A program made the position numbers and the translations under genes. A stretch of 64,000 nt of DNA from Amoebidium appalachense (lineage: Eukaryota; Protista; Ichthyosporea), in contig CAVNZM010000008.1 of the NCBI GenBank assembly GCA_963693365.1, positions 9,732,293 through 9,796,292 on the forward strand, read 5' to 3'. The notes under the pieces were generated by a model. It worked only from the letters and a program-made list of their open reading frames with translations. It did not search any database and was not told the DNA's origin. The number at the start of each line of letters is the position of its first letter. Within the stretch, counting starts at the first letter, position 1. This document shows positions 8,300-56,475 of the stretch, piece by piece.

Positions 8300-8790
8300 G
8301 GGTGAATATCGGGTGAACCAGGGTGGCTTCAGCGCGAAGGGGTCAAAAAACGGTCAAAGCAGCGCAGGTTTGGCCAATATCAGGTGAAGCTAGCGCGAAG
8401 TTGGTGAATATTCAATGAAGAGGCAGGTGCACGGTTCTCCAATAAACGGTCAAAGCAGCGCAGGGTTTGCCAATATCCGATCGACCAAAAACAAATCCTC
8501 GGTCAATATCCGGTGAACCCCAATTCGTGTACGACGAAAATCCTAGTAAACACAAAACTAAATTGGCGCCATCCCCGGCCAATATCCAGCGAACCCAAAA
8601 ACGAAGTCGCGCGACCCCCAGCCAATATCCAGTGAACCCCAAAATGATGTCGCGCGATCCCCAGCCAAAATCCGGTGAACCCCAAAACGATGTCGCGCGA
8701 TCCCCAGCCAAAATCCGGTGAACCCCAAAATGATGTCGCGCGACCCCCAGCCAATATCCAGTGAACCAAAACAGAACCTCAGTCAATATC
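8300..8790. repeat. Tandem ~43-bp repeat array plus a block shared with 31788-31870
   Basis: Unit like CCCAGCCAATATCCAGTGAACCCCAAAATGATGTCGCGCGATC, about 5 good copies plus degenerate ones. Confidence 0.85.
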
Positions 8791-9194
8791 GATCGATCCA
8801 CGGAGCATCCCTTTCAATAATGCTTGAATCAGATTCACCCGCTATTCGATCTGATTGGTCGAAAACGGCCAAGATCAATCGAGCCCGGGATTCACACTCT
8901 GACCAATCAGAACGCGCAGAAATTCAAAGCCAGTGCTCCGATGTTTCAGCCAATCAGAGCGCCCCACATTAGATCACGAGACCCAGCCAGTCTGTTTCAA
9001 CTCATTCGCAAATATCTTTATTTATTTTGAGAGTGGCTAGGTGCGCTCCAAATAAAAAAAATGCAATGCAATCCCGTTGGACCAAACTTGCATCCCGGGC
9101 CCCGAATTTTACACACCTGGCCAGCCAGATGATACAAAACACACCCGAACCCGCCATCCCCACAGCAGCCCTGCCAATTGTTGGGGATGACAGG

Positions 9195-23080: not shown

Positions 23081-24691
23081 CTACTGTGCTTGCTCCTGGC
23101 TGGCTTTCTTGAAGACGCTGATGACGAGGTCCCTTGTCAAGTCGTCCTCCATGTGCTCCCTCGCCATCTCCAGCATGGCCACCGCAAAGGTCACAAAGTC
23201 CACACGGAACAGCTCGCGCTCAACGTTCTTGTGTTTAAGCGCGGTGTGCAGACACTTCTCTGCAAGCGCCAGCTGCTCGGACGGCACGGGAAGCGCAAAG
23301 AGCAGGCGCTTGTTGGGCCCCACATGCCACGTACCGGCCTGCTTCATGCGGCCCTTCACGTCCTTCAGGCTCTGGCCGATCTTCAGACAGGGGGGGTCGC
23401 CATACTCGGACACAAACACGTAGATACCGGACTGCTGCTTGGTGCACACGTGGTTGGTGACCCAGCGCAGCTCATCACTGGCATCCTCGAATTCCGATGG
23501 AATGTGGTCCTGCTTGAGATTGTCTGTGGTCTGAAGTTCCAGAAGCCGACACTGCACCTCGAGTTTCAGGCGCTCCTCGCGAATCAGGGCGCGTTCCTCG
23601 CGCATCCTCACGATCTCTGTGTACTGGGAAGATTCTGCAATGCGCGCCTCCTTGTACAGACTCAGTGCAGTTTCCATCTCGGCCTGGTTGGTCATGAACT
23701 GGGTGATGTCTCCGAGCTTCAGTCTCTTGGGCTCCCTCTCGGGGGTGCCGGCCACACCCATTTTCCCCCTCACACTGTCGCGCATGAAAGCGTTGGGTCC
23801 TGACGGGTTGGCCGCTGCCGTGGCACGGTTACGCTCGATGTCTTCGACCAAGGTCTCGTCCCCACCTTCCAGGCGCGCTATGTCTCGGGCCCACTTGTCA
23901 ACGGGGGCAGATCCATAGCGCGAGCCGGATGCCATCTTGAAGGTCAGTTTCACCAACGATGAAGCAGGAACACCAATCGAGGGTCGCTTTGAATCGCCGA
24001 ACCTCAAAGGCCTCATGTTGAGGCCTTTGATTTCCTCTTCATTCTCATAATGTCGTCTGACATACTCAGCGGCCGCATGTCTGTCTAAATTGCGCACTAG
24101 CATTGCATAATCAACAAGACTGGCGTATTTAACACCTTCGGATTGAGCAACTCGCACTACATAGTCACCAATGCAGATGGTGTCGCCTTTTTTTGCGGCG
24201 ACCTCGTTTCCGGTCAATACCACATCTGTGTGTTCGGAATTCATAGTTTGGGAAACTGAGGTGTTGTCATGTGTGTTCAGTCCTTTTATACCTTCGGCCT
24301 CGCTCACATGGTTAACTTCGTTGGACATCAGGCGCTTGATATAATTGGCACAGATCCTTCGGAACTTGTGCGCGCGCTTGCCAGGGAGCAGGAAGATGAT
24401 CTCGACGATGAACTTGAAGGGAGCTACAGGTGTCAACTTGCCCCTTCCATCGATGCGGAGAACGTGGTGTCCCTCAGACACCATCTTCTTGATGTTGGAG
24501 TCTGTGGAATTCCTAAGGTCTGCCCATGCACACTTCGCTGCATTGGTGGTGCCTAGTACCAGGGATGCTACGTCCAGCACACTTGCCATCTTGGTATCTT
24601 GGTCAATGCGAACAGTAGCATCCTTGAACTGGGGGAACTCCCTCCACAGAAGCGACATGTCCACCTTTGAGTTGGTCTGTCCGGTAGCCAT
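23081..24691 (-). CDS. Tandem BRO-like domains plus C-terminal T5orf172/GIY-YIG-like domain
   Basis: Two BRO-like units, then GIYVF......LKIGQS...GRMKQ..T...EKCLH..LK......ELF. Confidence 0.8.
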   Translation of the reverse strand: MATGQTNSKVDMSLLWREFPQFKDATVRIDQDTKMASVLDVASLVLGTTNAAKCAWADLRNSTDSNIKKMVSEGHHVLRIDGRGKLTPVAPFKFIVEIIFLLPGKRAHKFRRICANYIKRLMSNEVNHVSEAEGIKGLNTHDNTSVSQTMNSEHTDVVLTGNEVAAKKGDTICIGDYVVRVAQSEGVKYASLVDYAMLVRNLDRHAAAEYVRRHYENEEEIKGLNMRPLRFGDSKRPSIGVPASSLVKLTFKMASGSRYGSAPVDKWARDIARLEGGDETLVEDIERNRATAAANPSGPNAFMRDSVRGKMGVAGTPEREPKRLKLGDITQFMTNQAEMETALSLYKEARIAESSQYTEIVRMREERALIREERLKLEVQCRLLELQTTDNLKQDHIPSEFEDASDELRWVTNHVCTKQQSGIYVFVSEYGDPPCLKIGQSLKDVKGRMKQAGTWHVGPNKRLLFALPVPSEQLALAEKCLHTALKHKNVERELFRVDFVTFAVAMLEMAREHMEDDLTRDLVISVFKKASQEQAQ

Positions 24692-27412: not shown

Positions 27413-28080
27413 CTAATTTGCCATGATCTTGCTATACACTATCTTGTGGGCACGGGTGTGTCTGCCAGGTTTCCCTATAGAGACACGCTCTCCTGCGGGA
27501 ACAAACGACGACCCGCCCAAAACCCGTGTCAGCACCGTTCCCAGTCTCTTGATCCCCACCTCGCAATCGTCCAACATGTTTATATCAGCCCATTGTCGCA
27601 TGCAACCGGCCATCCCCGATGTCGTAACCCAGGTCCCATTCTCGATACCAAAGCTGTGTGTTCCGCGTGCGCCTGTCGCTATGTCCTTTAGAAAGTGTAT
27701 TTCGTTCGACTCCTGTGCCCTCTCCGTTGGTTTTGTCCGGGTTGTGCAGATGTCCCCGTGACACCCCCAAATTAGCCGCAGAGTGTCGGGCTCCACCGTC
27801 ACAAACACCCCAAGAGATTCTATGGTCTCAACGGCAACCCTATAAACCTCGATGGATGCGTAACCAAACAGGTGCACACGAGCCTGTCGACCAGGGTAGA
27901 AGCGTTGGTACGCCTGCACCTGTCCAAGCGCCGCCTTCCACTGCGCCACACGCTTGACCTCGATGACCTGCGTGTCCGTGAGCAGGTCGATTCGGCCGGC
28001 TGGCGTGACCACTTCGCACTTCCCCCCTCAATCCTGGCTAACCGATCTCTGACCGACCCTTCATCATACGATGCCATCAT
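27413..28080 (-). CDS. PD-(D/E)XK-like nuclease fused to a copy of the helicase C-terminal domain; frameshift at ~28022-28027
   Basis: EVVTPAGRIDLLTDTQVIEVKRVAQWKAALGQVQAY; C-terminal half FLKDIA...GI..G...TT.GMA..MRQWAD.N...RLG.VLT.VLG aligns to the 28757 gene end. Confidence 0.75.
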
Positions 28081-28756: not shown

Positions 28757-30760
28757 CTATTTATATGCCTGTATCTGTTTGAAATCAATGGTATATGCAT
28801 GTGCCCTGTTGCTGGATCCATGGCTTTGTCCAATAACTATTTGGCTGGGATTGACGAGTTTCCGGGGTCCCAGAACCTTGGTCAACATTGAACCCAGCCT
28901 GTTGACACTGACAACTCTCCGGCCATCGTAACCGTTGGCATCTGCCCATTGACGCATATGTTCTGCCAACCCCTGCGTTGTAGCATGGGCCCCATCTCCG
29001 ATGCCAAGGTCAACTGCTGCATCACCAGCATTTGCAACGTCGCGGAGAAACTGGAGCTCCAAGGGCAAGCTCTTCTCCATTAGCTCTCGCCGGAGGCTTG
29101 TGTCGGGAGGGACTTCAAGAGTGGACTTCACGCCTGGTAGATCAACCAAGTAGTGGAAAAGTGCTTGTAGGACATCTGCTCGCTTGTAATACTCGATGAA
29201 TGCACTGTAGTACTCACGCTGCCCTATGCGCATTCCACTAGCCTCAAGGCACATGTAGCGTCGGTCACTCTGCTCAACTCGCACAGCCCAATCCTCGTTG
29301 GTCAAAAAGGCGTAGCGCTCGTAGGTGCGTGTGTGGACACCATCCACTCCCTTCTTCTCCAAGATGGCATCCTCTTGCGTGATGAGCGCTTTCAGTATGT
29401 TGTTGACTTCGTGACAGCCACCAAACGTACATTCATCGACAACCGCCAGAAGCTTGTGCATTAGATGTGCATTAAACTTGCTTGAAAGATGGTCTTTGTT
29501 TTTGATTGAGGCACTGTAATTCTCGCCAATTAAGCGTTGAACTACCTCAAACCACGTATTCTTACCAGCCCCTTGTGCAGACTTCACAAGGATCGCCGTG
29601 CCTGGTTTGGTAGCTGGGTACTGGAAGATATGAGCAGTCCAGCGTAACAGATACCAAAAAGCATCTTCGTTACCGTTTGCTAATATCTCATACGCATGGC
29701 GTACGAACATTTCAGCAGGATGTCCCGAATAGAGCCCATACTTTTCCAACAGCTCGTCAGTCATCAAAACCCCACTGCGATTCGGAAGGATGGGTGGTAC
29801 GATACATCTGGGTCCGGTGTAGTTGAATGCCGAGTCGTACTTGAACCGAAGACCTCGAAAAATGTTAAAAACTCGGCGTTCACCATGTAGATAGGCTTCC
29901 TTGACGAGGTTTGTTTTGGGGCTGGGTGATTCTGGATCAAAGACAGCCAAAACATAAGTTGGGATCTCGCCATTCATGAAGTCGACCCCCGTGTACCTTT
30001 TCTCCGTGTCCCGGTCAATATACTCCACACTAAACCGTTGAATCGAGTTTCGCATATCGTCCTTCGATAAAGTTCTGAGTTCATAGACCTGCCTCTCAGG
30101 GGACCATTGCTTCAGGATGTAGAGGCTTGTTCCGTTAACATATGCAGCCCATTTGCTCAGATAGGCGACCAGACCACTACGCCCCCAATCCGAACCAATG
30201 ATGCGTGGTAGAAACGGCATGCGGTCGGGGGGCTCGCTGTCCTCTCTTTCCAACTCGTCAAAGATGGATCGCTCGGGTGTAAAGTCCATCATGGTTGTGT
30301 CACATGTCGGAGAGGACTTGGCTTTAGTGGGTTGTGTCTCTTTGCCGTAGATGGACGTGAAGGCGCCGGCGGTGTTCCAACGCATCACACCCCCAGAGTT
30401 CCAATCACGAATGGGGTTGACGATAACACGGTTGGCCTTCGAAAATCTTTCGGACGCCCAGGCCGTCATGGCTGCTCGGTCAGGTCCAGGGGGCTGATGC
30501 CTTGCATTGCACTCCAAATGGGCAGTTTTGGTCCGCTTTGTCAAGCATGTGCGGATTTCACCATATGAGGTTCCAAATGTTGTTTGAATTGACTTGAAAA
30601 GATCGTCGTGGTCAAAAGGCTCGCCATCCACACGCATTTCTCGTTCACCAGTAGGGGCATAGACAGCAAGGTACCAATCCTGACAGCGCCGTCTCAGACT
30701 TGTTCCTTCCACAGCCTGCGGGGGAGGCTCGGCGCCTTCACAGCATACTGTTGGTTCCAT
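28757..30760 (-). CDS. Superfamily 3 helicase (D5/NrS-1-like, DUF5906 type) with C-terminal winged-helix-like domain
   Basis: Walker A SAQGAGKNT, Walker B LAVVDE, LKALIT, EKKGVD, motif C FLTN, arginine finger SDRRY. Confidence 0.9.
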   Translation of the reverse strand: MEPTVCCEGAEPPPQAVEGTSLRRRCQDWYLAVYAPTGEREMRVDGEPFDHDDLFKSIQTTFGTSYGEIRTCLTKRTKTAHLECNARHQPPGPDRAAMTAWASERFSKANRVIVNPIRDWNSGGVMRWNTAGAFTSIYGKETQPTKAKSSPTCDTTMMDFTPERSIFDELEREDSEPPDRMPFLPRIIGSDWGRSGLVAYLSKWAAYVNGTSLYILKQWSPERQVYELRTLSKDDMRNSIQRFSVEYIDRDTEKRYTGVDFMNGEIPTYVLAVFDPESPSPKTNLVKEAYLHGERRVFNIFRGLRFKYDSAFNYTGPRCIVPPILPNRSGVLMTDELLEKYGLYSGHPAEMFVRHAYEILANGNEDAFWYLLRWTAHIFQYPATKPGTAILVKSAQGAGKNTWFEVVQRLIGENYSASIKNKDHLSSKFNAHLMHKLLAVVDECTFGGCHEVNNILKALITQEDAILEKKGVDGVHTRTYERYAFLTNEDWAVRVEQSDRRYMCLEASGMRIGQREYYSAFIEYYKRADVLQALFHYLVDLPGVKSTLEVPPDTSLRRELMEKSLPLELQFLRDVANAGDAAVDLGIGDGAHATTQGLAEHMRQWADANGYDGRRVVSVNRLGSMLTKVLGPRKLVNPSQIVIGQSHGSSNRAHAYTIDFKQIQAYK

Positions 30761-30805
30761 TATCTATAGGATGAGAAAAAAAAAAAATCGGCAGGCAGTT
30801 GTAAG

Positions 30806-31045
30806 TGAACCACTTGAACCACCTGAACCACTGAACCAGGGGGTAAATCACCCCCTCCAGAAATATACTCGAGGTTGGTGTTTGTGTCTGTTCTCTGCTG
30901 GATTACAAAAACAGTGGTTCAGAGTGGTTCAAGTGGTTCACTCTATTAGAATTGGGTCAAAATGTCAAGTTTTAATATAAGAAATCGGAAAACCGCGAAC
31001 CACTGCGAACCACTGACCGGCAGTATGAAAAGATGTAGTGGTTCA
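30806..31045. repeat. Iteron-like block B (GAACCAC direct, GTGGTTC inverted) upstream of the helicase
   Basis: TGAACCA x4 at 30806-30838, GTGGTTCA x3 at 30914-30940, GAACCAC x2 at ~30997-31013, with an AT-rich spacer. Confidence 0.75.
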
Positions 31046-31203
31046 GCCCCTCTTTTTGTTATTATCAGTTACAATGATCAGCAAGTGTGGATCCGACCAA
31101 GAGAGAGTAGTAGTACAGACTGGCACCTTTTGGATGTGTTGCTTCCTTTTATACCTTTGAGGTGGGGTGTGAAAGTTGAGATTTTTTCTTGTGGCCTACA
31201 GTG

Positions 31204-31347
31204 ATGGCCACCTACAACGAGGCGTTCGTCAGAGACAAATTGGCACGGATCGAGGCGAACCCCACATCGGAAAGAACAATGGCGTACCATTTCAACAAAA
31301 GCAAGGTCTTGGACTTTGATGCAAATTGTCTGGTCGATGATCAATAA
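31204..31347 (+). pseudogene. Internally deleted nuclease paralog (47 aa)
   Basis: MATYNEAFVRDKLARIE matches the N-termini of the 27413 and 31416 genes. Confidence 0.55.
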
Positions 31348-31415
31348 ATGACCCCACCGAAGGGGCGGGGGGGGGGGCACGTGAGGCACGCGTATTTTTC
31401 TGCGCACTGTACAGG

Positions 31416-31772
31416 ATGTCTGCGGTAGGCTACGACGAGGCGTTCGTACGCGAGCGACTGGCCGAGCTCGAGGACGGGGTGTGCGGGGTGCCCACTCGGG
31501 CCGGCCGGATTGACGTGCTGACGAGCACGCAGGTCATCGAGGTGCAGCGTGTGTCGCAGTGGAAGACGGCGATCGGAAACGTGCTCGCATACAGCCACTA
31601 CTACCCCGACCGCCAACCGAGGATCCACCTGTTCGACTATGCGCCGGCAGACGTGTACAGGATTGCCGTGCAAACCATCACGTCGCTCAACATCACGCTT
31701 ACAACCGAAGAGGACACGTTGCAGCTGATTTGGGGGGACGACGCGGGCAAAGACGTAAAAGACGAAAAATAA
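31416..31772 (+). CDS. Stand-alone PD-(D/E)XK-like nuclease domain (catalytic K replaced by Q)
   Basis: GRIDVLTSTQVIEVQRVSQWKTAIGNVLAY; paralog of 27413..28080. Confidence 0.75.
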   Translation: MSAVGYDEAFVRERLAELEDGVCGVPTRAGRIDVLTSTQVIEVQRVSQWKTAIGNVLAYSHYYPDRQPRIHLFDYAPADVYRIAVQTITSLNITLTTEEDTLQLIWGDDAGKDVKDEK

Positions 31773-31867
31773 ATAAAGAAGCCATGGGCAAAAAGTCAAA
31801 GCAGCGCAGAGTTGGCCAATAAACGGTCAAAGCTAGCGCGAAGTAGTGAATATTCAACGAAGCTAGC

Positions 31868-33580
<1,713 letters not shown>

Positions 33581-35297: not shown

Positions 35298-35639
35298 CTA
35301 CCCACTCAAAAGCTCCTCCTCGAACTGCTCAAGCTCCTCCTCGAACTGCTCGATGTCAGCCTTGTACTTCTCTCTCAGCTTTTTCCACTGTGCATGGGAC
35401 ACCTGTGGGTTGATAGTTGGGTGTAAGTAGTAGTCCAGCCAGGTGATTTGTTTATGCAAGGCTCAGACATCACTGTATGCCATTACCTCAAACACACCCA
35501 CGCACCCACCAATACACCACCATGGCACACACCCACAGGAAACGAACTCCTACGTGTGGACCAGGTCAAGAAAAACTCTGCAAGGACTCAAAAAACCGTT
35601 TTTACGAACCCCTACATGTAATTGTGAATGCTAGGGCAT

Positions 35640-35697
<58 letters not shown>

Positions 35698-35741
35698 TGT
35701 TTTTTTGTTTGTTGTTTTTTTTGGTTTGTTTTTTTTGGTTT

Positions 35742-35781
<40 letters not shown>

Positions 35782-38322
35782 GGGGGGGGGGGGTACCTCG
35801 AAAACGAGTTCCCTGTCAGTGTAGCCACACGTGCATGCCGGGGGGGGCTTCTTGCCAGCGACCACAAGCCAGTTGACCGTGGCAAAATTTACCGCCTCGG
35901 CCAAGCTGCTACCAGCAGCATACCCAAAGTGGTATGCTCCAGGCAAGGTGCAGATGACCTCACCGGCGTGCTGAACCGTGCGCTGCACGGGGATGCCCTT
36001 CTTCATCAAATAACGGGGGTGGATGAACACAGACTGCCCCACCCAAATGTTAGTCATATGAAAACCCGGGTGGTCGTTTTTGTAAGTGCTTTTTTGGTTC
36101 TTGTTCTTCACGTCTGTGTCTACCACTTGTTCTTCACGTCTGTGTCTACCACTTGTTCTTCACGTCTGTATCTACCACTCCCTCTCTCCCTCTTCTTGTT
36201 CGTCCTCTGTTACTGTGTGTGTGTGGTCGTTTTTTTTTTATTGTTTTTTTTTTATTGTTTTTTTTTTTTTTTTTTTTTTTTTGGTGGGGGGGCCTACCTT
36301 ATGCTGTGTGACTTTCTTACAGATACCGGCCCCCCGAAAGCTCAAGTCTCTCGTGGATATCCTCGAGGATAGACGTAACCTGTTCCTCGTACTCTGCACT
36401 GATCACGAACCAGATTTTCTCTCCTGGCCCACGGACCATGATGTTGACACTCCCAAGTAGAAGGTCTTCTGTGTGGAGCACAATCGGACCCCCAGTCGTG
36501 ACACTGCAAAGAGGCATGGGATTAGTTGGGGCTAAAACAGTAATTACTTCCGACTAGATGTGGCCCAATACATTCCGAAAAGACCGACCCATACACACAC
36601 CCAGGATGGTTCTGTGAACATAAGGGGCGTTCTGCAAGCCTGCCTTTTTCCTTTGTTTAATTATTTGTTGTTTTTTTTTTGGGGGGGGGGGGGGCATACT
36701 TATAGAGCATCGGTGTTGAGATGCCCACACGATCTTTGAATTCTCTTGATACTATTGAGTCAAGCGTCTCCAAGCTGAACATGTAGTCGATTTCTTTCTT
36801 CACCACCTGTCCCTCCTGTTAGTGCCTTCATGTTCACCATTCAACAACACACAGCATGCCTACATATACCCACCACAGTGCATCAACACAACATACACTC
36901 TCCGCTGCACACCCACGCACGCACGCATGCCTACACAACATACACCCCACGCACGCACGCATCCCTACACAACATACACTCTCCGCACAAACACACGCAC
37001 GCACGCATCCCTACACAACATACACTCTCCGCACAAACACACGCACGCACGCATCCCTACACAACATACACTCTCCGCACAAACACACGCACGCACGCAT
37101 CCCTACACAACATACACTCTCCGCACAAACACACGCACGCACGCATCCCTACACAACATACACTCTCCGCACAAACACACGCACGCACGCATCCCTATCC
37201 CCCCCCCCCCCCACAACATACACTCTCCGCACAAACACACGCACGCACGCATCCCTACACAACATCCACTCTCCGCACAAACACACGCACGCACGCATCC
37301 CTACACAACATACACTCTCCGCACAAACACACGCACGCACGCATCCCTACACAACATACACTCTCCGCACAAACACACGCACGCACGCATCCCTACACAC
37401 ACGCACACATGCCTACGCAACATACACTCTCCGCACAAACACACGCACGCACGCATGCACAACATACACTCTCTGCACAAACACACGCACGCACACATGC
37501 ACAACATACACTCTCCGCACAAACACACGCACGCACGCATGCACAACATACACTCTCTGCACAAACACACGCACGCACACATGCACAACATACACTCTCC
37601 GCACAAACACACGCACGCACGCATGCACAACATACACTCTCTGCACAAACACACGCACGCACACATGCACAACATACACTCTCCGCACAAACACACGCAC
37701 GCACACATGCACAACATCACTCTCCGCAAAAACACACACAACATACAAATCTTCGCCGCACACATACGTACCTCACTGGGTGTATGGGTGTTTTTAAGAG
37801 GCTTCAGATCTGTTCCGTAAAGGAACATTGATTTTTCACCATCCGATAGGGAGTCCAACAACCTCCAAAACTCCTCCTCCCCCACCGGATCCCCCTGCCC
37901 AATCGTGTTAGCCCCTGTTCATGGTAACCACATCCTAGTGGTTGCAAATACGCACCTCTGGAATTTGCCCTATGATGTCCTCCCTATAAACGAGGAAGAC
38001 ATCCCTGATGGTGGTAGCCTCCACCCAAATCCGGGTGTAGGATTTTCTCACTCGTGTGGCCTGAGCAGCCTTTTTCAGCCCCTGCACTACCGGCTCGGGA
38101 GGCACGAACTTGACGGCACCAGCTGCCCGAAACTCGTGTTCTTTTTCGATTGACAAAACTATCTTCTCCAAGGAGAGCTTTTCTAGATGCATTTGGCGGA
38201 GATGTGCTACGGGTACCTCGTTGAACCCCGCCACCTCCCCAGTCTCAGTGTCTTGTTGTTGCCCCCTGTCCACCTCTCCCGCTTCTTGCTCTGTGTGTGC
38301 GTGCGTGTGTGTGCGTGTGTGT

Positions 38323-38358
<36 letters not shown>

Positions 38359-38448
38359 GTGGCCGAGTGCATACATGCGTGCAGGTGCCTTCCCGTGGTG
38401 TGTGTGTGTGTGTGTGTGTGTCATGCATGCGTGCAGGTGCCTTCCCGT

Positions 38449-38480
<32 letters not shown>

Positions 38481-38506
38481 ATGCATGCGTGCAGGTGCCT
38501 TCCCGT

Positions 38507-38538
<32 letters not shown>

Positions 38539-38564
38539 ATGCATGCGTGCAGGTGCCTTCCCGT

Positions 38565-38598
<34 letters not shown>

Positions 38599-38624
38599 AT
38601 GCATGCGTGCAGGTGCCTTCCCGT

Positions 38625-38663
<39 letters not shown>

Positions 38664-38689
38664 ATGCATGCGTGCAGGTGCCTTCCCGT

Positions 38690-38721
<32 letters not shown>

Positions 38722-38807
38722 ATGCATGCGTGCAGGTGCCTTCCCGTGGTGTGTGTGTGTGTGTGTGTGTATGTGTGTGTCATGCATGCGTGCAGGTGCC
38801 TTCCCGT

Positions 38808-38839
<32 letters not shown>

Positions 38840-38865
38840 ATGCATGCGTGCAGGTGCCTTCCCGT

Positions 38866-38897
<32 letters not shown>

Positions 38898-38923
38898 ATG
38901 CATGCGTGCAGGTGCCTTCCCGT

Positions 38924-38955
<32 letters not shown>

Positions 38956-38981
38956 ATGCATGCGTGCAGGTGCCTTCCCGT

Positions 38982-39015
<34 letters not shown>

Positions 39016-39183
39016 GGGGGAGGGAGGGGGGGGGGGGGGGTTTAGCCGAGTGCATACATGCGTGCAGGTGCCTTTCCGTGGTGTGTGTGTGTGTGTGTGT
39101 GTGTCATGCATGCGTGCAGGTGCCTCCCGTGGGTGTGTGTGTGTGTGTGTGTGTGTCATGCATGCGTGCAGGTGCCTTCCCGT

Positions 39184-39218
<35 letters not shown>

Positions 39219-39298
39219 ATGCATGCGTGCAGGTGCCTTCCCGTGGTGTGTGTGTGTGTGTGTGTGTGTGTCATGCATGCGTGCAGGTGCCTTCCCGT

Positions 39299-39336
<38 letters not shown>

Positions 39337-39362
39337 ATGCATGCGTGCAGGTGCCTTCCCGT

Positions 39363-39395
<33 letters not shown>

Positions 39396-39613
39396 GGGGG
39401 GAGCCAGGGGGGGGGGGGGTTTAGCCGAGTGCATACATGCGTGCAGGTGCCTTTCCGTGGTGTGTGTGTGTGTGTGTGTGTGTCATGCATGCGTGCAGGT
39501 GCCTCCCGTGGTGTGTGTGTGTGTGTGTGTGTGTCATGCATGCGTGCAGGTGCCTTCCCGTGGTGTGTGTGTGTGTGTGTGTGTGTCATGCATGCGTGCA
39601 GGTGCCTTCCCGT

Positions 39614-39646
<33 letters not shown>

Positions 39647-39863
39647 GGGGGGAGCCAGGGGGGGGGGGGTTTAGCCGAGTGCATACATGCGTGCAGGTGC
39701 CTTTCCGTGGTGTGTGTGTGTGTGTGTGTGTGTCATGCATGCGTGCAGGTGCCTCCCGTGGTGTGTGTGTGTGTGTGTGTGTGTCATGCATGCGTGCAGG
39801 TGCCTTCCCGTGGTGTGTGTGTGTGTGTGTGTGTGTCATGCATGCGTGCAGGTGCCTTCCCGT

Positions 39864-39908
<45 letters not shown>

Positions 39909-41415
39909 GGGAGGGGGGGGGGGGGGGGGATGGGGGGTGGGATAGGCCTAGGTGCATGCATGCGTGCAGGTGCCTTCCCGTGGTGTGTGTGTGTGGGGGG
40001 GGGGGGGGGGGGATAAGCCGAGGTGCATGCATGCGTGCAGGTGCCTTCCCGTGGTGTGTGTGTGGGGGGGGGGGGGGGGGGGGGGGGGGATAAGCCGAGG
40101 TGCATGCATGCGTGCAGGTGCCTTCCCGTGGTGTGTGTGTGTGGGGGGGGGGGGGGGGGATAAGCCGAGGTGCATGCATGCGTGCAGGTGTGTGATGGCT
40201 TCAATGTGTGGGTGATGGTGGTGTAGGTGGTTGGGTAATTGGGTGGTTGGTTGTGTGTGTGTGGGGGGGGGGGGGGGGTTACCTGGCTGGAAATCCCACT
40301 CTCCCCCTTCTCCCTCTCCTCTCCACTCTCCCCCTTCTCCCTCTCCAACCCCCTCTTCCCCTTCTCCCTCTCCTCTCCACTCTCCCCCTTCTCCCTCTCC
40401 TCTCCGCTCTTCCCCTTCTCCCTCTCCTCTCCACTCTCCCCCTTCTCCCTCTCCTCTCCGCTCTCCCCCTTCTCCCTCTCCAACCCACTCTCCCCCTTCT
40501 CCCTCTCCCTCTCCACTCTCCCCCTTCTCCCTCTCCAACCCCCTCTTCCCCTTCTCCCTCTCCTCTCCACTCTCCCCCTTCTCCCTCTCCTCTCCACTCT
40601 CCCCCTTCTCCCTCTCCTCTCCACTCTCCCCCTTCACCCTCTCCAACCCCCTCTTCCCCTTCTCCCTCTCCTCTCCACTCTCCCCCTTCTCCCTCTCCAA
40701 CCCCCTCTTCCCCTTCTCCCTCTCCTCTCCACTCTCCCCCTTCTCCCTCTCCAACCCCCTCTTCCCCCTCTCCTTCATCATCACTCTTGTGGACCTCCAC
40801 TTTTGCCCGCTTTTTCGGGTGGTTAATCGTCGGGGCCGGCAGTTTGACAGCAGGTCTGTCTGGAGGGCTGCGTGCAGCCCCATCCCACCACACTTCCCAT
40901 CCGAGCCTTTTGAATATCCAAAAAATTTGTTTCTCCCCCGGCAAAGAACCCGATACTTCAGGTATGTGACTTAAGTCGTGGCTGCCACTGAAAGTGGAAA
41001 GTCGACTGAGCATCGCCGCCAAACCATCCGAGTTTCCATGATAGCTGCCAAGATCGTAAACTCTCCATTGAGGGCCACCCCATTTCAGAATCCAAGCAAT
41101 AGTCGTATTGATACCCTTGTTGTTTTCGAGTTGTTGCAACTGATATTTGTTCCTGTGATACAGACGCCCGTCGTTGAGTTCAAACAAGAAGACCGAAACA
41201 TGATCTGAATCGTTGGGTTTCACAGCGTGTAATATTGGTGCCGTCTTCTTTCTTTGATAACGATTAAAACCCTGTGGTGTGAATAGCTCTTCACCCGTAA
41301 AAATGATTGTAGGATCAGTATGTTTCGAGAATATGAATGTTGGTGGGTTTGCTTGTATGCTACTCTGGAACGCATCATTGATGAGCGCCAGAAACTGTTC
41401 GTTGGTAGCAGCCAT
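35298..41415 (-). CDS. JmjN+JmjC histone lysine demethylase (KDM4-like), 7 exons: 41415-40283, 38290-37956, 37894-37772, 36806-36700, 36503-36298, 36033-35797, 35402-35298
   Basis: JmjN EVPV...AGAVKFVPP; EFW...YGTD; GISTPMLY; LHTED...SVN...GEKIWF; C...QHK; VQHAGEVICTLPGAYHFG...AEAVNFA...W; CTC. All introns are GT-AG and several have CTAAY branch sites. The model needs single-base corrections at ~40505 and ~36330. Confidence 0.9.
36870..37730. repeat. Intronic 43/39-bp minisatellite
   Basis: ACAACATACACTCTCCGCACAAACACACGCACGCACGCATCCCTAC-type units. Confidence 0.95.
38360..40190. repeat. Intronic minisatellite: constant CATGCATGCGTGCAGGTGCCTTCCCGTG plus variable (GT)n or poly-G
   Basis: About 30 units read directly. 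Confidence 0.95.
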
Positions 41416-41567: not shown

Positions 41568-42454
41568 CTGCCTGTGTGCTTGTGCCACTGCTGCGCTCGC
41601 GTCTAGTCTACAATGTGTGTGTTTAAAATGTGTCGGGAAAAACGTGAAGGAAATTCTACGTGTCTGTATTCAAAGAAGAAAAGGCAGCTAAAAGCGCGAC
41701 GTGCACAGACTAACAGGTCTGTGTTCTCGTTCTTTGTTTTGACTCTGGCCTGCTTGCAACGTAAACAGTTTCAGCGCCGGGGTGCAAGTGACACGAACTG
41801 AAGTGGCGCGCTTCAATCATGTCATTGAAATGATAGCTGACCAATCAATAGTTTGTCCTGTTTGCCCAATTGCAAAATGGAATGTGTATTGGGCAATACT
41901 CGGCGCGCGTACGTGATAACTGGCCAATCAGTAAGATCGTTTCGCCGACCCGGCTGCCCCTCTGCGTAGCCAAATTTGTGGCTAATTAAGTGTTATAACT
42001 TAGCAATAAAAATAATATACCCAAAATGATTAATTTATATTTATTATGCAAATATTTGCTTAGAAATTTGTGTGGAAAGCGTTTTCTGAAACCAGTCTAC
42101 GAAAAGCCTTTAGGATTTGCAACATCGTATCAAATTGGCTAATCAGATCATGCCATGGCCGACACGCGTTTGCCCTTAGTACCAGTGCCCGATAGCCCCT
42201 ATCCAACAATCACTGAATGATTCGCGTGCATTTGGGAATATTCGCGCCCGTGATAACTGGCTTATCAACTCGGCTGCTAATTATAGTATTACCGCCCTTG
42301 CTCCCCAGGACCCTTCCGCGAAGCAATATATATCGCTAATATGTACCAATAAATACCAAAAGCACCAAAATAAATTGATTATACACTTTCTTAATACAAA
42401 AATTATGTGTGGAAAGCGTTTTGTGAATCCGGCATCTGAAGAGCCGATGGGGCA

Positions 42455-42775
42455 CTTGGCCAATCAGATTATGACATGCGCTGCCTGGAGTGCCAGTGCC
42501 CTATCACGTGGATCCAACTGTTATACACCAATCAGAGCACGGAGAAGTCCGCGAATGAGATGGCCAATCAGATTATGAAATTCGCTGCCTGGAGTGCCAG
42601 TGCCCTATCACTGACGTGGATCCAACTGTTATACACCAATCAGAGCACAAAGAAGTCCGCGAATGAGATGACCATTGGACAATCAGATTATGAAATTCGC
42701 TGCCTGGAGTGCCAGTGCCCGATCACTGACGTGGATCCAACAATCAGAGCACCAAGAAGTCCGCGAATGAGATGC
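42455..42775. promoter_or_regulatory. Three ~110-bp tandem units, each with (C)CAATCAG boxes, between divergent genes
   Basis: Repeated CCAATCAGA...GTGGATCCAAC...CCAATCAGAGC. The regulatory role is inferred. Confidence 0.5.
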
Positions 42776-42842: not shown

Positions 42843-43513
42843 GTGTGTGCGTGTGTGTGTGCGTGCGTGTGTGAGCTGTGTGTGCAAAAAGAGGGGAAAT
42901 AAGCGCTGCATACAAAAGCCCCGAAGTGGAGTATACGACAAACCCAGCGCCCAAGCTTCATACCCAAAGTGGATACAATAAAAAGACAGTTGCTGTGTGT
43001 GCAAAGCTGTGTGTGCAAAAAGAGGGGAAATAAGCGCTGCATACAAAAGCCCCGAAGTGGAGTATACGACAAACCCAGCGCCAGCGCTTCATACCCAAAG
43101 TGGATACAATATTTTACATCTCATGCACTACAAGGCTTGGCAAAGCTTGGTCCTCGGTCCTCAGTCCTCAATGGATCCCCTTATAAGAACATTTTGCTTC
43201 TAAAAATCATCGGTGATGGCCTTTTTGATCAGTTCACAGCCGCGTTTGCACATGAATGAATTTTGCTTTATTTTGGCTTTGTGTAAGAGGTTTTTTTCAG
43301 TTCACGGTGTGTTTGCACGCGATAGAATTTTCGTTTGCTTTGCTTTTTGTAAATAATTCAGTGACGACTTTTTTTGTTCGTATCTCTATTTCAGTGACGA
43401 CTTTTTTTTGTTCGTATCTTTTTTTTTTTGGGAAGAAGTGTCTGACTCTGACCTCCACGTTTTTCTAGGTAGTCTTTTCTATTTCACATTCCCCTCTTTT
43501 GAATTTGTGAACC

Positions 43514-44864
43514 ATGGATAGCGCCTCGCAAATGGTCGGGCAAAGCACAAACCCCGCCGACCCCACCGACCCCAAAAAGGGCACCCCCACCGACCCCACC
43601 GACCCCACCGACAAAAAGGGCACCCCCGCCGACCCCGCCGACCCCACCGACAAAAAGGGCACCCCCGCCGACCCCGCTGACCCCACCGACAAAAAGGGCA
43701 CCCCCGCCGACCCCGCCGACCCCACCGACAAAAAGGGCACCCCCGCCGACCCCGCTGACCCCACCGACAAAAAGGGCACCCCCGCCGACCCCGCCGACCC
43801 CACCGACAAAAAGGGCACCCCCGCCGACCCCACCGACAAGGACGTTTCTTCGGCTCCCATCGACCATAGACTTATGGAAGCACTACAGGCAGAAATGACA
43901 TTGCAACTTAGTCAGGCTTTAGCCTCACTTGGCGTGACATCTGTGCCTGCTACACCCACCACCGCCGCCACCACCACCTTACTCGAATACAAAGAGAAAT
44001 ATGAAAATGCGGAGAAAGCGTTGCAAACGGTGAAAGATGAAAACAAACGGTTGACAGAAACGATTAGAGAGGTCAAAGAAGCAGCAGTCAAAGATAAATA
44101 TACTGCTTCTGCAACGAACAACCTGTTGGCTGAGAGGGTTCAGGAACTCGAAGCTCGGCTCATTAGTGAGACGGCCGAAAAGTTATCCTTGCAGGATGAG
44201 GTGGCCTGGCAGAAGGAGGAAAATGCAAAAGTCGAGTCAGAGATGGCAGACCTGCAGAAAACCTATCGAAAGACAGTCAAGGAGAGCACACAAAAACTGC
44301 TTTTGGGCCTGAAACGCTCCCCCCATACATCCGACGTGGAGATACTCCCCCCCCCCCCCTCTAGCGCTACCCAATCCGGTCGTTCATCCGTTGCCCGCCC
44401 CCACCAACGTCCTATTCAGAGTGCCCCCGCTCGCATAGACCCCATGATGTCCAATCCCCACACACAAACATCCGACGTCGAGGAGATACTCCCCCCCCCC
44501 CCCCTCTAGCGCTACCCAATCCGGTCGTTCATCCGTTGCCCGCCCCCACCAACGTCCTATTCAGAGTGCCCCCGCTCGCACAGACCCCATGATGTCCAGT
44601 CCCCACACAAAAACCGGGCTCGGGCTGAAGAGGGGGGCGGATTCAGGTGGGAATGTGCCCAAACGGTTCCGGGGCGGAGAGAGAGAAAGGCCCAAGGAAT
44701 CAATAGATAAGATTCTCGACGAAGCAGCCAGAGAGGAGGATGAGAAGAAGCGGAAAGAAAGCAGTCGTGCAGGGCAGGGCAAGAAAGAAAGACCATCGGG
44801 CAAGAAAACGGTGCTCCGCACACGGAGGCCTGTGACTTCCAGTGACGATGACCATTCGGTCTGA
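43514..44864 (+). CDS. Repeat/coiled-coil protein (PTDKKGTPADPAD repeats, basic-acidic tail); +1 frameshift in C-run at ~44491-44504
   Basis: ORF 43514..44509 continues into 44589..44864. An internal ~140-bp duplication differs by one C. Confidence 0.7.
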
Positions 44865-44869
44865 AAGAC

Positions 44870-44917
44870 TTTGTGTGTGTTTTTTTTGTTTTGTTTTTTT
44901 TTTGTTTTTTTTTTTGT

Positions 44918-44952
<35 letters not shown>

Positions 44953-45048
44953 CTTCGACTATGTTACATGGCAGAGCCTAAGACGTTGGAGTGATGCCGT
45001 GTGAAATGTGGAAAAATATAGACTTGGCTATGAAACACGGAAAGCATT

Positions 45049-45087
<39 letters not shown>

Positions 45088-45282
45088 GGGGGGGGGGGGG
45101 GGGCTTCGACTATGTTACATGGCAGAGCCTAGGACGTGGGAGTGATGCCGTGTGAAATCTGGAAAAATATAGACTTGAAAGCATTGTTTTTTTTTTTTGG
45201 TTTTTGTTTTTTTTTTTTTTTTTTTTTTTTTTTGGGGGGGGGGGGGGGGGGGCTTCGACTATGTTACATGGCAGAGCCTACG
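44870..45282. repeat. 3 copies of poly-T/poly-G + GGCTTCGACTATGTTACATGGCAGAGCCTA
   Basis: Direct reading. Confidence 0.9.
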
Positions 45283-45411
45283 GTTTCTGTATAATGTATA
45301 GGTAGAAGTTTTGGGATTTCTCTTTACAATCGGTTGGAGATGGATTTTATAAAAAGAAATCCAGTGTTATCTGAATCTGTGCTTACCCCACATGCTTGTA
45401 TACACAGACGT

Positions 45412-46456
45412 GATGCACGTCTAAGTCCTTCACACACTCAAAGAGTCCCACCACCCACATGCACTAGCACTATTTCTCTCTTCCTGCTCTGTATCCCCCC
45501 TCCCCCCTTCATGCATGCACGTCTAAGTCCTTCAATCCCCATGCCATGCACACACTCAAAGAGTCCCCCACCACCCACATGCACTAGCACCATTTCTCTC
45601 TTCCTGCTCTATATCCCCCCCCCCCCCCCCCCCCCCCCCCTCCCCTTCCCCCTTCATGCATGCACGTCTAAGTCCTTCAATCCCATGCCATGCACACACT
45701 CAAAGAGTCCCCCACCACCCACATGCACTAGCACCATTTCTCTCTTCCTGCTCTATATCCCCCCCCCCCCCCCCCCCCTCCCCTCCCCCCTTCATGCATG
45801 CACGTCTAAGTCCTTCAATCCCCATGCCATGCACACACTCAAAGAGTCCCCCACCACCCACATGCACTAGCACCATTTCTCTCTTCCTGCTCTATATCCC
45901 CCCCCCCCCCCCCCCTCCCCCTTCCCCCTTCATGCATGCACGTCTAAGTCCTTCAATCCCCATGCCATGCACACACTCAAAGAGTCCCCCACCACCCACA
46001 TGCACTAGCACCATTTCTCTCTTCCTGCTCTATATCCCCCCCCCCCCCCCCCTCCTCCCTCCCCCCCCCCCTTCATGCATGCACGTCTAAGTCCTTCAAT
46101 CCCCATGCCATGCACACATTCAAAGAGTCCCCCACCACCCACATGCACTAGCACCATTTCTCTCTTCCTGCTCTATATCCCCCCCCCCTCCCCTCCCCCC
46201 TTCATGCATGCACGTCTAAGTCCTTCAATCCCCATGCCATGCATGCATTCAAAGAGTCCCCCACCACCCACATGCACTAGCACCATTTCTCTCTTCCTGC
46301 TCTATATCCCCCCCCCCCCCTCCCCTCCCCCCTTCATGCATGCACGTCTAAGTCCTTCAATCCCCATGCCATGCATGCATTCAAAGAGTCCCCCACCACC
46401 CACATGCACTAGCACCATTTCTCTCTTCCTGCTCTGTATTCCCTGCATGCACTAGC
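45412..46456. repeat. ~125-bp tandem repeat with variable poly-C, ~8 copies
   Basis: ATGCACGTCTAAGTCCTTCAATCCC...CACATGCACTAGCACCATTTCTCTCTTCCTGCTC units. Confidence 0.95.
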
Positions 46457-46591
46457 AGTGTTACTCGTTCATCCCAGCCCGGGCCAATGGTATGCAAAGT
46501 AACTGTATCGGCCGTGCAGCGCTGTCGTTGTGTGTTTATTTTCGTGTTTTCGGGTCGGTGCACGTGTGGTGTGGAGTACCATGTTTATTGC

Positions 46592-46972
46592 TTTTTGTAT
46601 CAGCGCTGGCGTGTACTCCACTTTTGTATCAGCGCTGGCGCTGTGATTGTCGTGTACTCCACTTTTGTATCAGCGCTGGCGCTGTGATTGTCGTGTACTC
46701 CACTTTTGTATCAGCGCTGGCGCTGTGATTGTCGTGTACTCCACTTTTGTATCAGCGCTGGCGGTACTCCACTTTTGTATCAGCGATGGCGTGTACTCCA
46801 CTTTTGTATCAGCGCTGGCGCTGTGATTGTCGTGTACTCCACTTTTGTATCAGCGCTGGCGCTGTGATTGTCGTGTACTCCACTTTTGTATCAGCGCTGG
46901 CGCTGTGATTGTCGTGTACTCCACTTTTGTATCAGCGCTGGCGCTGTGATTGTCGTGTACTCCACTTTTGTA
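46592..46972. repeat. 41-bp tandem repeat
   Basis: TTTTGTATCAGCGCTGGCGCTGTGATTGTCGTGTACTCCAC, with shortened variants. Confidence 0.95.
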
Positions 46973-46991
46973 GCGCGGTGTGTTAATTGAA

Positions 46992-47433
46992 TTAAAAGTC
47001 CGAGTGACTTGTTTGTCTCAGAGTGGTGTCGTACTCCGCAGCACCCGTCTTCTTATTGAAATAGTATATGACTGCATACACCAATGGTGTAACCAATAAA
47101 CATGTGAGGACAATAGCAGCGCTGACGTACACCAGATACATTTTGTTCACTTTCTCTCTAGCATTCGGTTCGGACTTCATTAAATTGTACCAGTGTATAT
47201 TTGCAACGACACTGCATATAGATATCACATAAAGAATGCCTGTGGTGACCGTGCTGTCGAACATGTACGTGTACCTCACAAAACTTTCAGTATCCGACGT
47301 GTTACACCCCAAAAGTGACCTCTCTGAGATCTTGCCTGTGGTACAAACTCTTGATGCCGTGTTGCTCTTGTGTTTTACCAGTACCCCTCTCTCCAGATGC
47401 CGAATTTAGATTGGAATTCGTGAATACACCCAT
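46992..47433 (-). CDS. Two-TM membrane protein; probable +1 frameshift at ~47385
   Basis: Two hydrophobic helices in ORF 46992..47312; ATG 47433 joins on removing one G. Confidence 0.5.
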
Positions 47434-47568
47434 GTGATTGGTCAGTGGTTTGGCACCAAGAGATTGATTGATATGCCATCAACCAGTCAACAAAAAGTAC
47501 TCGCTTTTACTTTTTGTCTCGCTTCACCCCAATCCAAGAACAGTGCACACCAAAACAAAACACTAGAA

Positions 47569-48052
47569 ATGGGAGACGCACTTTTGCGCCCCGATTCGGT
47601 TGACCCCGAACGATGCCCTGCATTTGCACCCTCAAAAAAAGCCCAGTGCAAAAACAAAAAAGAAAACATGCCCACACCACAAGGACGGCTTCAAGCCCTG
47701 GGTATGCTTTGCCCCTGCCACCGGTGTCCTCCTCTACAGCGACAACACCATCAACATCCTCCACCCCCACAAGGCCGGGGACTATGCTCATGCAAACCTC
47801 CTGCTGGACGACCTCCTGGCCGCCTTTACAGTCGCAGAAATGCAGCGCCCTCGCACCGAGCGCACCGGGGTACCCGCGCTGACTGTGTCCACTCCGGATC
47901 CACCCATGGGTGCACCACAGCCACCGGTTGCAGCTGCAGCGGTGGGTGTGGGCAGGGAAAATGGGTACTGCCAGGGCAAAACCAAGGCTGGCAATCCCTG
48001 CAAAAACAGGGTGAAATCTACGACCCATTGCCATAAGCACAAGCCCAAATAA
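47569..48052 (+). CDS. Protein with two C-x(9)-C-x(n)-C-x2-H zinc-binding motifs; frameshift in A-run at ~47655-47667
   Basis: RCPAFAPSKKAQCKNKK-TCPHH and YCQGKTKAGNPCKNRVKSTTHCHKH; stop codon in AATAAA. Confidence 0.6.
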
Positions 48053-48741: not shown

Positions 48742-49028
48742 TTGGGATATTCGGGTTGGTTGTAAGGTTTTCCGGGTCGGGCCGAAGGCCCTAACGGGCC
48801 GCAGGCCCGTCTATTGGGCCATAGGCCCTAGGCCGCGAGGCCTGCTAACCCCCCCGCGGGCCGGGCCGGGCCGGGGGTGGCTCGCGGGCCGGGCCGGGCC
48901 CCCCGGTCCCCGGGGCCCCGGGCCCCAGGCCTCGCGGCCTAGGGCCTATGGCCCAATAGACGGGCCTGCGGCCCGTTAGGGCCTTCGGCCCGACCCGGAA
49001 AACCTTACAACCAACCCGAATATCCCAA
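48742..49028. repeat. Perfect 103-bp inverted repeat with 81-nt GC-rich loop (candidate viral hairpin terminus)
   Basis: 48742-48844 is the exact reverse complement of 48926-49028; loop 48845-48925. Confidence 0.97.

Positions 49029-50144: not shown

Positions 50145-56475
<6,331 letters not shown>

Follow-up and report, generated by a model that had tools for sequence, protein, structure and literature searches.

Organization of the Locus

The window (the whole 64,000-nt stretch of Amoebidium appalachense DNA that was analysed) carries, to the right of a region of intronless viral-type genes, a seven-exon JmjC gene on the minus strand, a GC-rich palindrome and a multi-exon gene of host type. 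The features around the JmjC gene are as follows:

1-34400, no strand assigned: gene-dense, intronless viral-type region with many orphans; the window begins inside it
1526-2599: aquaporin gene, within the intronless viral-type region
28757-30760: D5-type primase-helicase gene (DUF5906, E = 2e-19; PHROG primase, E = 7e-27)
41841-42642, no strand assigned: CCAAT-box cluster upstream of the JmjC gene, likely a host-type Pol II promoter (predicted function)
43514-44865, plus strand: intronless orphan ORF with coiled coil, between the JmjC gene and the palindrome
47434-48052, plus strand: small orphan ORF(s) with Cys/His zinc-ribbon motifs
48742-49028, no strand assigned: GC-rich palindrome with 103-bp perfect arms and an 81-nt structured loop (z -25)
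50200-56470, plus strand: multi-exon phospholipase D-like (PLD) gene of host type (PLDc_2, E = 7e-6, 26.3 bits against a cut-off of 27)

The aquaporin and the D5-type primase lie among intronless genes and are two markers listed for giant-virus insertions in Amoebidium, and they therefore support the reading of the locus as a viral cassette (Sarre et al., 2024; PMC11244446). Weak matches to MSV199, NUDIX and T5orf172 were also found in 1-34400. Capsid, PolB, A32 and VLTF3 genes were not recognized in the ORFs scanned, so that the assignment to a virus class rests on the primase-helicase, the aquaporin and the gene layout. None of 3185 candidates proved to be a close relative of the ORF at 402-1340.

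The segment between 34.4 and 48.7 kb resembles the host flank in GC content (0.48, against 0.47 in the flank and 0.58 in the viral core), CpG observed/expected ratio (0.73, against 0.75 and 0.92) and density of simple-repeat tracts (4.25 per kb, against 4.74 and 0.04-0.55). The share of CG sites that stand in CGC/GCG context is 0.33 in this segment (99 of 302). It is 0.31 in the right flank (134 of 431), below the expected 0.41, and 0.49 in the viral core (1141 of 2336), equal to the expected 0.49; methylation of CGC/GCG has been reported for Amoebidium, and the depletion in the flank is therefore the footprint expected and points to an Amoebidium-like host. The host-like composition of the segment, together with the lack of any blastn match between it and the left region, counts against a viral cassette and favours an alternative that we regard as unlikely, namely that the gene resides in host DNA and adjoins the insertion, as a non-canonical KDM4 paralogue or as what an older, domesticated insertion has left behind, with the viral boundary at ~34.4 kb and the palindrome unrelated. 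What ties the right-hand ORFs to viruses is also only a weak lead (DUF5763 at 47434-48052, score 0.80, with DUF5763 on 15% of members), and a couple of KDM4-like genes have been described outside insertions with host genes on their flanks, whereas most such genes sit inside insertions (PMC11244446). Against a host paralogue, no conserved host gene was recognized from 34.4 to 48.7 kb, such a gene appearing only beyond the palindrome on its right, and poly-C and (CA)n tracts occur within viral-type sequence too, at 31.9-33.6 kb.

The coiled-coil ORF is flanked by inverted 34-nt repeats, at 43055-43088 on one side and in seven copies within 46631-46967 on the other. The intronless orphan and the Cys/His ORF before the palindrome, followed by the host-type PLD-like gene, support a viral cassette, and the latter gene indicates host DNA right of the palindrome. 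The palindrome is a candidate for the end of the element. No target-site duplication was seen in the palindrome flanks, and a search of Rfam over 41.4-50.2 kb, palindrome included, gave no match. The original prediction had placed the gene inside a viral terminal region; the intronless viral-type ORFs on its left and the palindrome on its right agree with this setting, but "terminal" is an interpretation, and the composition of the segment is host-like.

Gene Structure and Reading Frame

The gene was reconstructed from sequence as seven exons and six introns, as follows:

40283-41415, minus strand: exon 1, with ATG, an orphan domain of ~190 amino acids and then an acidic Gly/Glu linker
40296-40773, minus strand: exon-1 minisatellite with a 27-nt unit, encoding the acidic Gly/Glu linker
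38291-40282, minus strand: intron 1 (1992 nt), with 58-nt and 77-nt (GT)n/poly-G minisatellites
37956-38290, minus strand: exon 2, divergent JmjN preceded by an acidic linker
37772-37894, minus strand: exon 3, YGxD motif of the JmjC core
36700-36806, minus strand: exon 4
36298-36503, minus strand: exon 5, HTED, Asn, Lys, zinc Cys and His-Lys motif
35797-36033, minus strand: exon 6, third iron ligand His, AEAVNF motif and CxC zinc pair
35298-35402, minus strand: exon 7, stop after a short acidic helical tail

All six introns are of the GT-AG type (1992, 61, 965, 196, 264 and 394 nt), and a CTRAY branch-like motif lies 18-24 nt from the 3' end in four of them, with none in the last 60 nt of intron 1. 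As had been proposed, introns are filled with (GT)n, poly-G and minisatellites (units of 42-77 nt), and these were found in introns 1 and 3. An alternative 21-nt intron after exon 2 was rejected, since it yields a stop and the contigs splice a 61-nt intron instead.

The reading frame is broken twice as assembled. In exon 1, one 28-nt unit (40502-40529) among the 16 measured units of the minisatellite shifts the frame, and in exon 5 one extra base at ~36330 would end the protein ahead of the third iron ligand. The latter base is absent from contigs otherwise identical to the window (run X1, record 1; run X3, record 10), and the exon-5 frameshift is therefore an assembly error, although two contigs of run X3 (depth 336 of 613) do carry the base; a hidden intron behind the shift was ruled out by the same one-base difference. 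With this error discounted, the catalytic frame is open. The join between exons 1 and 2 we infer from the donor site and phase. The claim of a reconstructable seven-exon gene thus stands for the exons and GT-AG introns, with the qualification that two frame breaks and this one join impose.

Splicing and Expression

Four of the six introns (introns 2-5, the only ones that the contigs spanned) are skipped in public contigs from runs X9 and X14. The joint between exons 2 and 3 (37893-37955) is present in contigs of both runs, with record 11 of X9 showing no difference from the window across it, and the joins of exons 3-4, 4-5 and 5-6 were also seen. Run X9 is labelled "DNA?" and was taken as RNA solely because its contigs skip introns; none of the runs listed as matching the gene is on record as RNA. 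Run X12 returned zero contigs over the second queried stretch of the gene, which does not imply absence. The spliceosome-dependent expression proposed for the gene is borne out by these RNA-like contigs.

Catalytic Domain and Relationship to KDM4

Exons 5 and 6 match the Pfam JmjC domain (E = 0.0015 and 2e-12, respectively). Alignment to KDM4A via P0001 located the Fe(II) triad HTE..H, which is intact (His 36473-36475, Glu 36467-36469 and third ligand His 35929-35931), and the Tyr of YGxD, Asn 36443-36445 and Lys 36416-36418, which are kept and which we take to have 2-oxoglutarate-binding roles; the triad and the Asn/Lys positions were thus found as originally predicted. Cys-His-CxC residues are likewise kept in the alignment and presumably form a zinc site of the KDM4 type. 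The JmjN domain fared less clearly: it is very divergent and gave no match to Pfam JmjN at E ≤ 1, but on a profile of 10 JmjN domains it scored 14.3 bits, a value that none of 1000 shuffles approached, the highest reaching 6.2. It sits shortly before JmjC without an ARID/PHD insertion. No PHD or Tudor domain was found, and the gene stops 34 codons into exon 7.

Several comparisons support an enzyme of KDM4 type, as judged from sequence. A His-Lys motif possessed by the query occurs in 32 of 33 KDM4-like and in none of 22 KDM5-like relatives, in a set of 151 proteins of which 90 were without one motif and six unassigned. Profile scores favoured KDM4 over KDM5 in the larger comparison (117.6 vs 105.9 bits), while in the first, smaller comparison the profiles failed to separate the two (95.7 vs 99.9 bits). 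The query fell outside the KDM5 clade in both trees (88/99 in the first; SH-aLRT 96 in the second, with 21 clade rows), in which groups were labelled from domains or profile rather than names, and formed a long branch without a supported sister. Human KDM4A-D and yeast Rph1 share with the query the JmjN near JmjC, YGxD, HxE..H, Asn/Lys, the His-Lys motif and the zinc site, whereas the query is only 26-38% identical to the KDM4s compared, has no PHD/Tudor and has altered active-site surroundings, for example an Ile at the position of the KDM4A Phe that precedes the first His by three residues. Human KDM4D is also without PHD and Tudor domains, and KDM4 enzymes hydroxylate methyl-lysine of histone H3.

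The Orphan Exon-1 Domain

The exon-1 domain had no sequence match in Pfam, PHROG or PDB. Its single-sequence models (pLDDT 44 and 40) were too poor to use and gave no Foldseek match, and the domain was found within longer proteins in none of 527 candidates, which is weak evidence. A resemblance to SnoaL/NTF2-like proteins is a weak lead (feature score 0.93, with 126 of 256 features in common). A Ulp1-like identity was rejected, since the resemblance was by eye only and profile searches gave no match.

Copies and Their Divergence

Three sequence types of the gene occur in one DNA run, X1 (contig depths of ~520-600, 1070-1100 and 90-150), and the copy types, at least three in number, are roughly 88-93% identical. 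The gene is therefore not the single-copy host KDM4, which was the first half of what the original prediction had set as its own refutation. A canonical single-copy KDM4 would fit the intron-rich, spliced gene and its host composition, but hardly its several copy types, its long branch and an identity that does not exceed 38% with any KDM4 in the comparison, or its lack of PHD and Tudor domains, both of which the canonical Amoebidium KDM4 possesses (PMC11244446), and this explanation is barely tenable. Intron 4 is common to a sister copy; this and the host composition agree with the proposal that a host gene was taken up as genomic DNA, and copy types of this number and identity, one with intron 4, fit spread with sister elements better than the non-canonical host paralogue discussed above.

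The amino-acid divergence between copies is near-neutral. Copy type B differs from the query by 12 synonymous and 32 non-synonymous changes (pN/pS 0.85, p 0.37), and copy type C gives a pN/pS of 0.98. These ratios would suit a virus-carried passenger or decaying copy that is transcribed when silencing lapses and has no present anti-silencing role, as would the exonic deletions of 2 nt and 1 nt in a transcript contig of X14 and the exon-1 frameshift of the assembly. However, none of the 57 coding differences counted creates a stop codon, and the catalytic His, Glu, Asn and Lys are unchanged, a small sample that is not significant alone; in addition, copy type B has no exon indels in ~370 nt against four indel rows in ~82 nt of intron 4, which suggests selection for frame upkeep. 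A mere passenger is accordingly considered improbable, more so than a host paralogue.

Wider searches brought up no close relative. Exon 6 was found within longer proteins in one of 70 candidates, a general KDM4, and searches of viral contigs with exon 6, the primase and the palindrome-arm pattern gave no close relative. The metagenome loci kept (80 of 177) and the cluster representatives listed (150 of 2367) were ordinary KDM4/KDM5, at most 60% identical over short stretches. Negative outcomes of this kind, including those for the exon-1 domain and the ORF at 402-1340, are no proof of absence. None of the sequences of the Amoebidium GEVE KDM4-like clade was among the search matches.

Origin and Possible Role

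The gene is a reader-less, multi-copy, spliced gene of KDM4 type. On balance, it is probably carried in a cassette of host origin that forms one end of an endogenous giant virus in an Amoebidium-like protist, and its predicted role is anti-silencing. The near-neutral copies, the divergent active-site surroundings and the long branch of the query count against this explanation. Its source would be a host paralogue, which the virus would have taken up in the form of genomic DNA and would spread from one insertion to another. Host Pol II may transcribe it from the CCAAT cluster, and the Fe(II)/2-oxoglutarate centre would hydroxylate methyl-lysine of H3 (K9, perhaps K36), as KDM4 enzymes do. Without PHD/Tudor, the enzyme may act broadly or be guided by the orphan N-terminal domain, and the predicted outcome is that repressive histone methylation is stripped, which would leave viral DNA open to expression in the nucleus. 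A more elaborate and rather doubtful version makes the segment a hairpin-closed, host-derived viral end of 14 kb, in which the KDM4 readers were traded for a SnoaL/NTF2-like targeting or oligomerising domain and the copies diversified in an arms race; the last part cites the open frames and pN/pS near or above 1.

Under the favoured explanation of a viral, host-derived cassette, a giant virus erasing host silencing marks by a captured, still-spliced enzyme would be a clear case of chromatin conflict. The locus supplies a checked gene model whose catalytic frame is open and whose transcripts are spliced, and the gene is thus a candidate for an enzyme assay; a demethylase assay is absent from the text seen of PMC11244446. 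The hairpin end, if it is an end, could define the mode of integration of such elements.

Comparison with Known Systems

The gene class and the anti-silencing hypothesis are already in print (PMC11244446). JmjC genes occur in 39% (52) of Amoebidium giant-virus insertions (Sarre et al., 2024; PMC11244446), as the original prediction had acknowledged in part, but the same paper also described their multiple exons and loss of readers, proposed the anti-silencing role and reported reactivation by demethylation, while no KDM4-like gene was reported from public giant-virus genomes (PMC11244446). Like the query, the Amoebidium GEVE genes are multi-exon among intronless viral genes, KDM4-derived and without PHD/Tudor, are present in several copies, some of them transcribed, and have an aquaporin and a D5 primase nearby (PMC11244446). 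The gene is likely one more copy of this enzyme family. The published genes are JmjC-only by Pfam, whereas the query has in addition a JmjN, though a divergent one, and, provided that exon 1 is part of the gene, an orphan N-terminal domain; the palindromic end of this window has no mention in the portions searched of the text and supplements (PMC11244446). The orphan domain, the near-neutral divergence between copies and the possible hairpin end are thus small additions.

Medusavirus, to which the Amoebidium elements have been reported to be related, is a giant virus that depends on the nucleus, and 7 of its 461 genes have putative spliceosomal introns (PMC6450098). Punuivirus of Chlamydomonas, an endogenous giant virus as is probable here too, has spliced, intron-rich latency genes of a host-like kind, and its TET is a 2-oxoglutarate dioxygenase implicated against host silencing, but it resides in another host, its element is active and its TET targets DNA 5mC rather than histones (bioRxiv 10.64898/2026.10.09.758095).

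Gene Structure, Splicing, and Copies

The demethylase gene is probably a host-derived KDM4 lacking reader domains that is carried by a virus, a reading that draws on its structure, its splicing, its kept residues, and the presence of several copies. The gene (35,298–41,415, minus strand) comprises seven exons and six introns (1992, 61, 965, 196, 264, and 394 nt for introns 1–6) with GT-AG borders in 6/6, and a CTRAY motif lies 18–24 nt 5' of the acceptor in four of the six. In agreement with the first account, (GT)n, poly-G, and minisatellites fill introns 1 and 3. That account also described a reconstructable seven-exon gene, without mention of two frame breaks that the gene contains as assembled: in exon 1, one of the 16 measured units of a 27-nt repeat is 28 nt long, and in exon 5 a surplus base near 36,330 would terminate the protein ahead of the third iron ligand.

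Part of 35,790–36,860 is present in 20 of 24 listed sequencing runs, and read contigs from five runs were compared with the window. Over 36,283–36,860, the DNA run X1 (two contigs, all depth), runs X9 and X14, and two contigs of the DNA run X3 (depth 336 of 613) lack the base at 36,330. Apart from this missing base, X1 record 1 matches the window exactly, as does X3 record 10, and the extra base is therefore an assembly error. X9 is labelled "DNA?" and was taken as RNA on account of its intron-skipping contigs, such joins being absent from X1 and X3. Contigs of X9 and X14 contain the exon 3–4, 4–5, and 5–6 joins and skip the 61-nt intron 2, and the proposed check for spliced junctions therefore recovers four of six introns (introns 2–5) in RNA-like contigs; an X14 contig extends 39 nt beyond the start of exon 2, and the exon 1–2 join and intron 6 are predicted. 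X9 records 11, 14, and 16 show no differences from the window, and record 19 a single difference over 148 nt; splicing thus occurs in the window copy or in one identical to it. A spliced X14 contig of another copy type carries 2-nt and 1-nt exon deletions (window 38043 and 36399), not listed for X1; it either comes from a transcribed copy that is broken or is an artefact of the contig.

X1 contains at least three demethylase sequence types, with contig depths of ∼520–600 (window type), 1070–1100, and 90–150, depth not being equal to copy number; the two DNA runs share alleles and may come from strains that are not independent. The single-copy host KDM4 that the original prediction set against its own reading disagrees with this number of types, and a canonical host KDM4 is highly improbable.

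Protein Domains and Relationship to KDM4

Exons 2–7, with X placed at the frame break, encode 369 residues. JmjC is matched by Pfam in exons 5 and 6, but the JmjN half of the proposed JmjN/JmjC architecture was found with a custom profile only. When aligned to KDM4A via the protein P0001, every one of the YGxD, HTED, Asn, Lys, third His, His-Lys, and Cys-His-CxC zinc positions is occupied, in agreement with the Fe(II) triad and 2-oxoglutarate positions first reported. No PHD or Tudor domain was found in the protein.

Exon 6 matches KDM4 and KDM5 structures about equally. Among 19 relatives, the demethylase falls outside the KDM5 clade (88/99) with tied profile scores (95.7 for the KDM4 side, 99.9 for KDM5). 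In a second comparison of 55 relatives (both motifs in 61 of 151 proteins, six unassigned left out), His-Lys is present in 32 of 33 KDM4-like and 0 of 22 KDM5-like proteins, and the demethylase scores 117.6 (KDM4) versus 105.9 (KDM5). In the tree of this comparison, the demethylase again falls outside the KDM5 clade, on a long branch and with at most 38% identity. From its sequence, the enzyme is predicted to work like KDM4.

Pfam, PHROG, PDB, and longer-protein searches gave no sequence relative for the exon-1 domain; the lead from a language-model search is SnoaL/NTF2-like (0.93), with few features shared (folds unusable). Among the matches listed are two proteins of ∼1600 aa (P0002 and P0003) that match exon 6 in 15 and 19 stretches, which may be JmjC fragments in tandem or else artefacts.

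In the differences listed, the window copy differs from the sister copy type B by at least 12 synonymous and at least 32 non-synonymous changes (pN/pS 0.85, p 0.37) and from copy type C by at least 3 and at least 10. These include no stops and leave the catalytic residues unchanged, and copy type B has no exon indels and four indel rows in ∼82 nt of intron 4. The pattern fits either relaxed or diversifying selection. A decaying passenger, with the pN/pS ratio on its side and the unaltered catalytic residues and lack of stops on the other, is improbable.

The Adjoining Viral-Type Region

The intronless viral-type genes predicted beside the demethylase were found: positions 1–34,400 are gene-dense and intronless, encode an aquaporin and a D5-type primase-helicase, and give weak MSV199, NUDIX, and T5orf172 matches, with no capsid or polymerase recognised among 47 ORFs (Pfam) and 21 ORFs (PHROGs). 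By eye, the same regulatory-looking repeat occurs at 8330–8470 in the viral core and at 31780–31870, at the start of a poly-C/(CA)n array, and viral-type sequence therefore reaches at least 31.9 kb. Two paralogous orphan ORFs (12513–14007 and 20759–22270), without a library match, are 43% identical and contain His and Cys motifs reminiscent of a papain-like protease. Other internal paralogues lie at 9195–10127, 18847–20403, and 23081–24691, and 27419–28068 is an inverted partial duplicate, relative to 28757–31772, of the primase end and its neighbor. At 402–2599, the aquaporin adjoins a Cys-rich membrane-anchored ORF (DUF5773 below cut-off) that is reminiscent of viral entry-fusion proteins; both appear frame-shifted at base runs, and such assembly errors may therefore be common in the window.

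Composition and Boundaries of the Segment

The following features mark the segment at 34.4–48.7 kb and its surroundings:

8851–8957 (viral intergenic), 41922–42571 (upstream of the demethylase), and 48720: CCAAT cluster, 7 matches in the window versus 0.6 expected
Right of the demethylase: intronless coiled-coil orphan ORF between inverted repeats
Right of the demethylase: small Cys/His ORF with a weak DUF5763 lead
48742–49028: GC-rich palindrome with 103-bp perfect arms and an 81-nt loop containing smaller hairpins
50200–56470: multi-exon host-type phospholipase D-like gene, next to the palindrome on its right

The CCAAT boxes are of the NF-Y type. At 42874–47000, a 34-nt motif of a 131-nt tandem repeat (43055–43088) recurs inverted seven times (46631–46967), bracketing the intronless orphan ORF, and this may be a nested mobile unit.

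With repeats masked, the segment resembles the host flank and not the viral core in GC (0.48, against 0.47 and 0.58, respectively) and CpG observed/expected (0.73, against 0.75 and 0.92), and blastn finds no match between it and the left region. CG sites lie in CGC/GCG in 99 of 302 cases in the segment (expected share 0.425), 134 of 431 in the host flank (0.413), and 1141 of 2336 in the viral core (0.494); such sites are ∼70% methylated in Amoebidium (PMC11244446). This composition supports both a host origin for the segment and a host resembling Amoebidium, and is silent on whether the segment lies inside or outside the element. A host-resident paralogue beside the insertion, which this composition would equally suit and which has parallels in a couple of Amoebidium KDM4-like copies outside insertions (PMC11244446), is unlikely beside the virus-carried reading.

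The palindrome, originally called terminal, does lie right of the demethylase, but it has no flanking duplication and no match in the viral contigs searched. Because Ectocarpus elements have inverted repeats at an internal linearisation site as well as at one end (PMC13236599), one palindrome fixes no terminus; the present one may mark the end of an element or a site of linearisation, or be what is left of a small transposon. The boldest reading, a host cassette that ends in a hairpin and carries a retargeted, fast-evolving KDM4, is unlikely.

Comparison With Known Systems

If the KDM4 is virus-carried, the gene would sit inside the viral element and be transcribed by host Pol II, and its KDM4-like product would demethylate H3K9, and perhaps also K36, on viral DNA or close to it, to the benefit of the virus. 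This class of gene is already known: Sarre et al. (2024; PMC11244446), the one paper on these genes found in our literature search, found JmjC to be the domain most enriched in the giant-virus insertions of Amoebidium, with KDM4-derived, reader-less, multi-exon genes in 39% of insertions, four KDM4-like genes transcribed in culture, reactivation upon demethylation, and a proposed anti-silencing role. The present locus may be among those in its Fig. S6C and tables, and the text and supplements searched do not mention a hairpin, palindrome, or terminal repeat. Medusavirus has putative spliceosomal introns and is nucleus-dependent (PMC6450098). In Punuivirus, the latency genes are rich in introns, and a TET dioxygenase has been implicated in countering 5mC silencing (10.64898/2026.10.09.758095). 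The gene described here shares the testable features of the Amoebidium KDM4-like family (PMC11244446); an Amoebidium-like host and a position inside an element are presumed.
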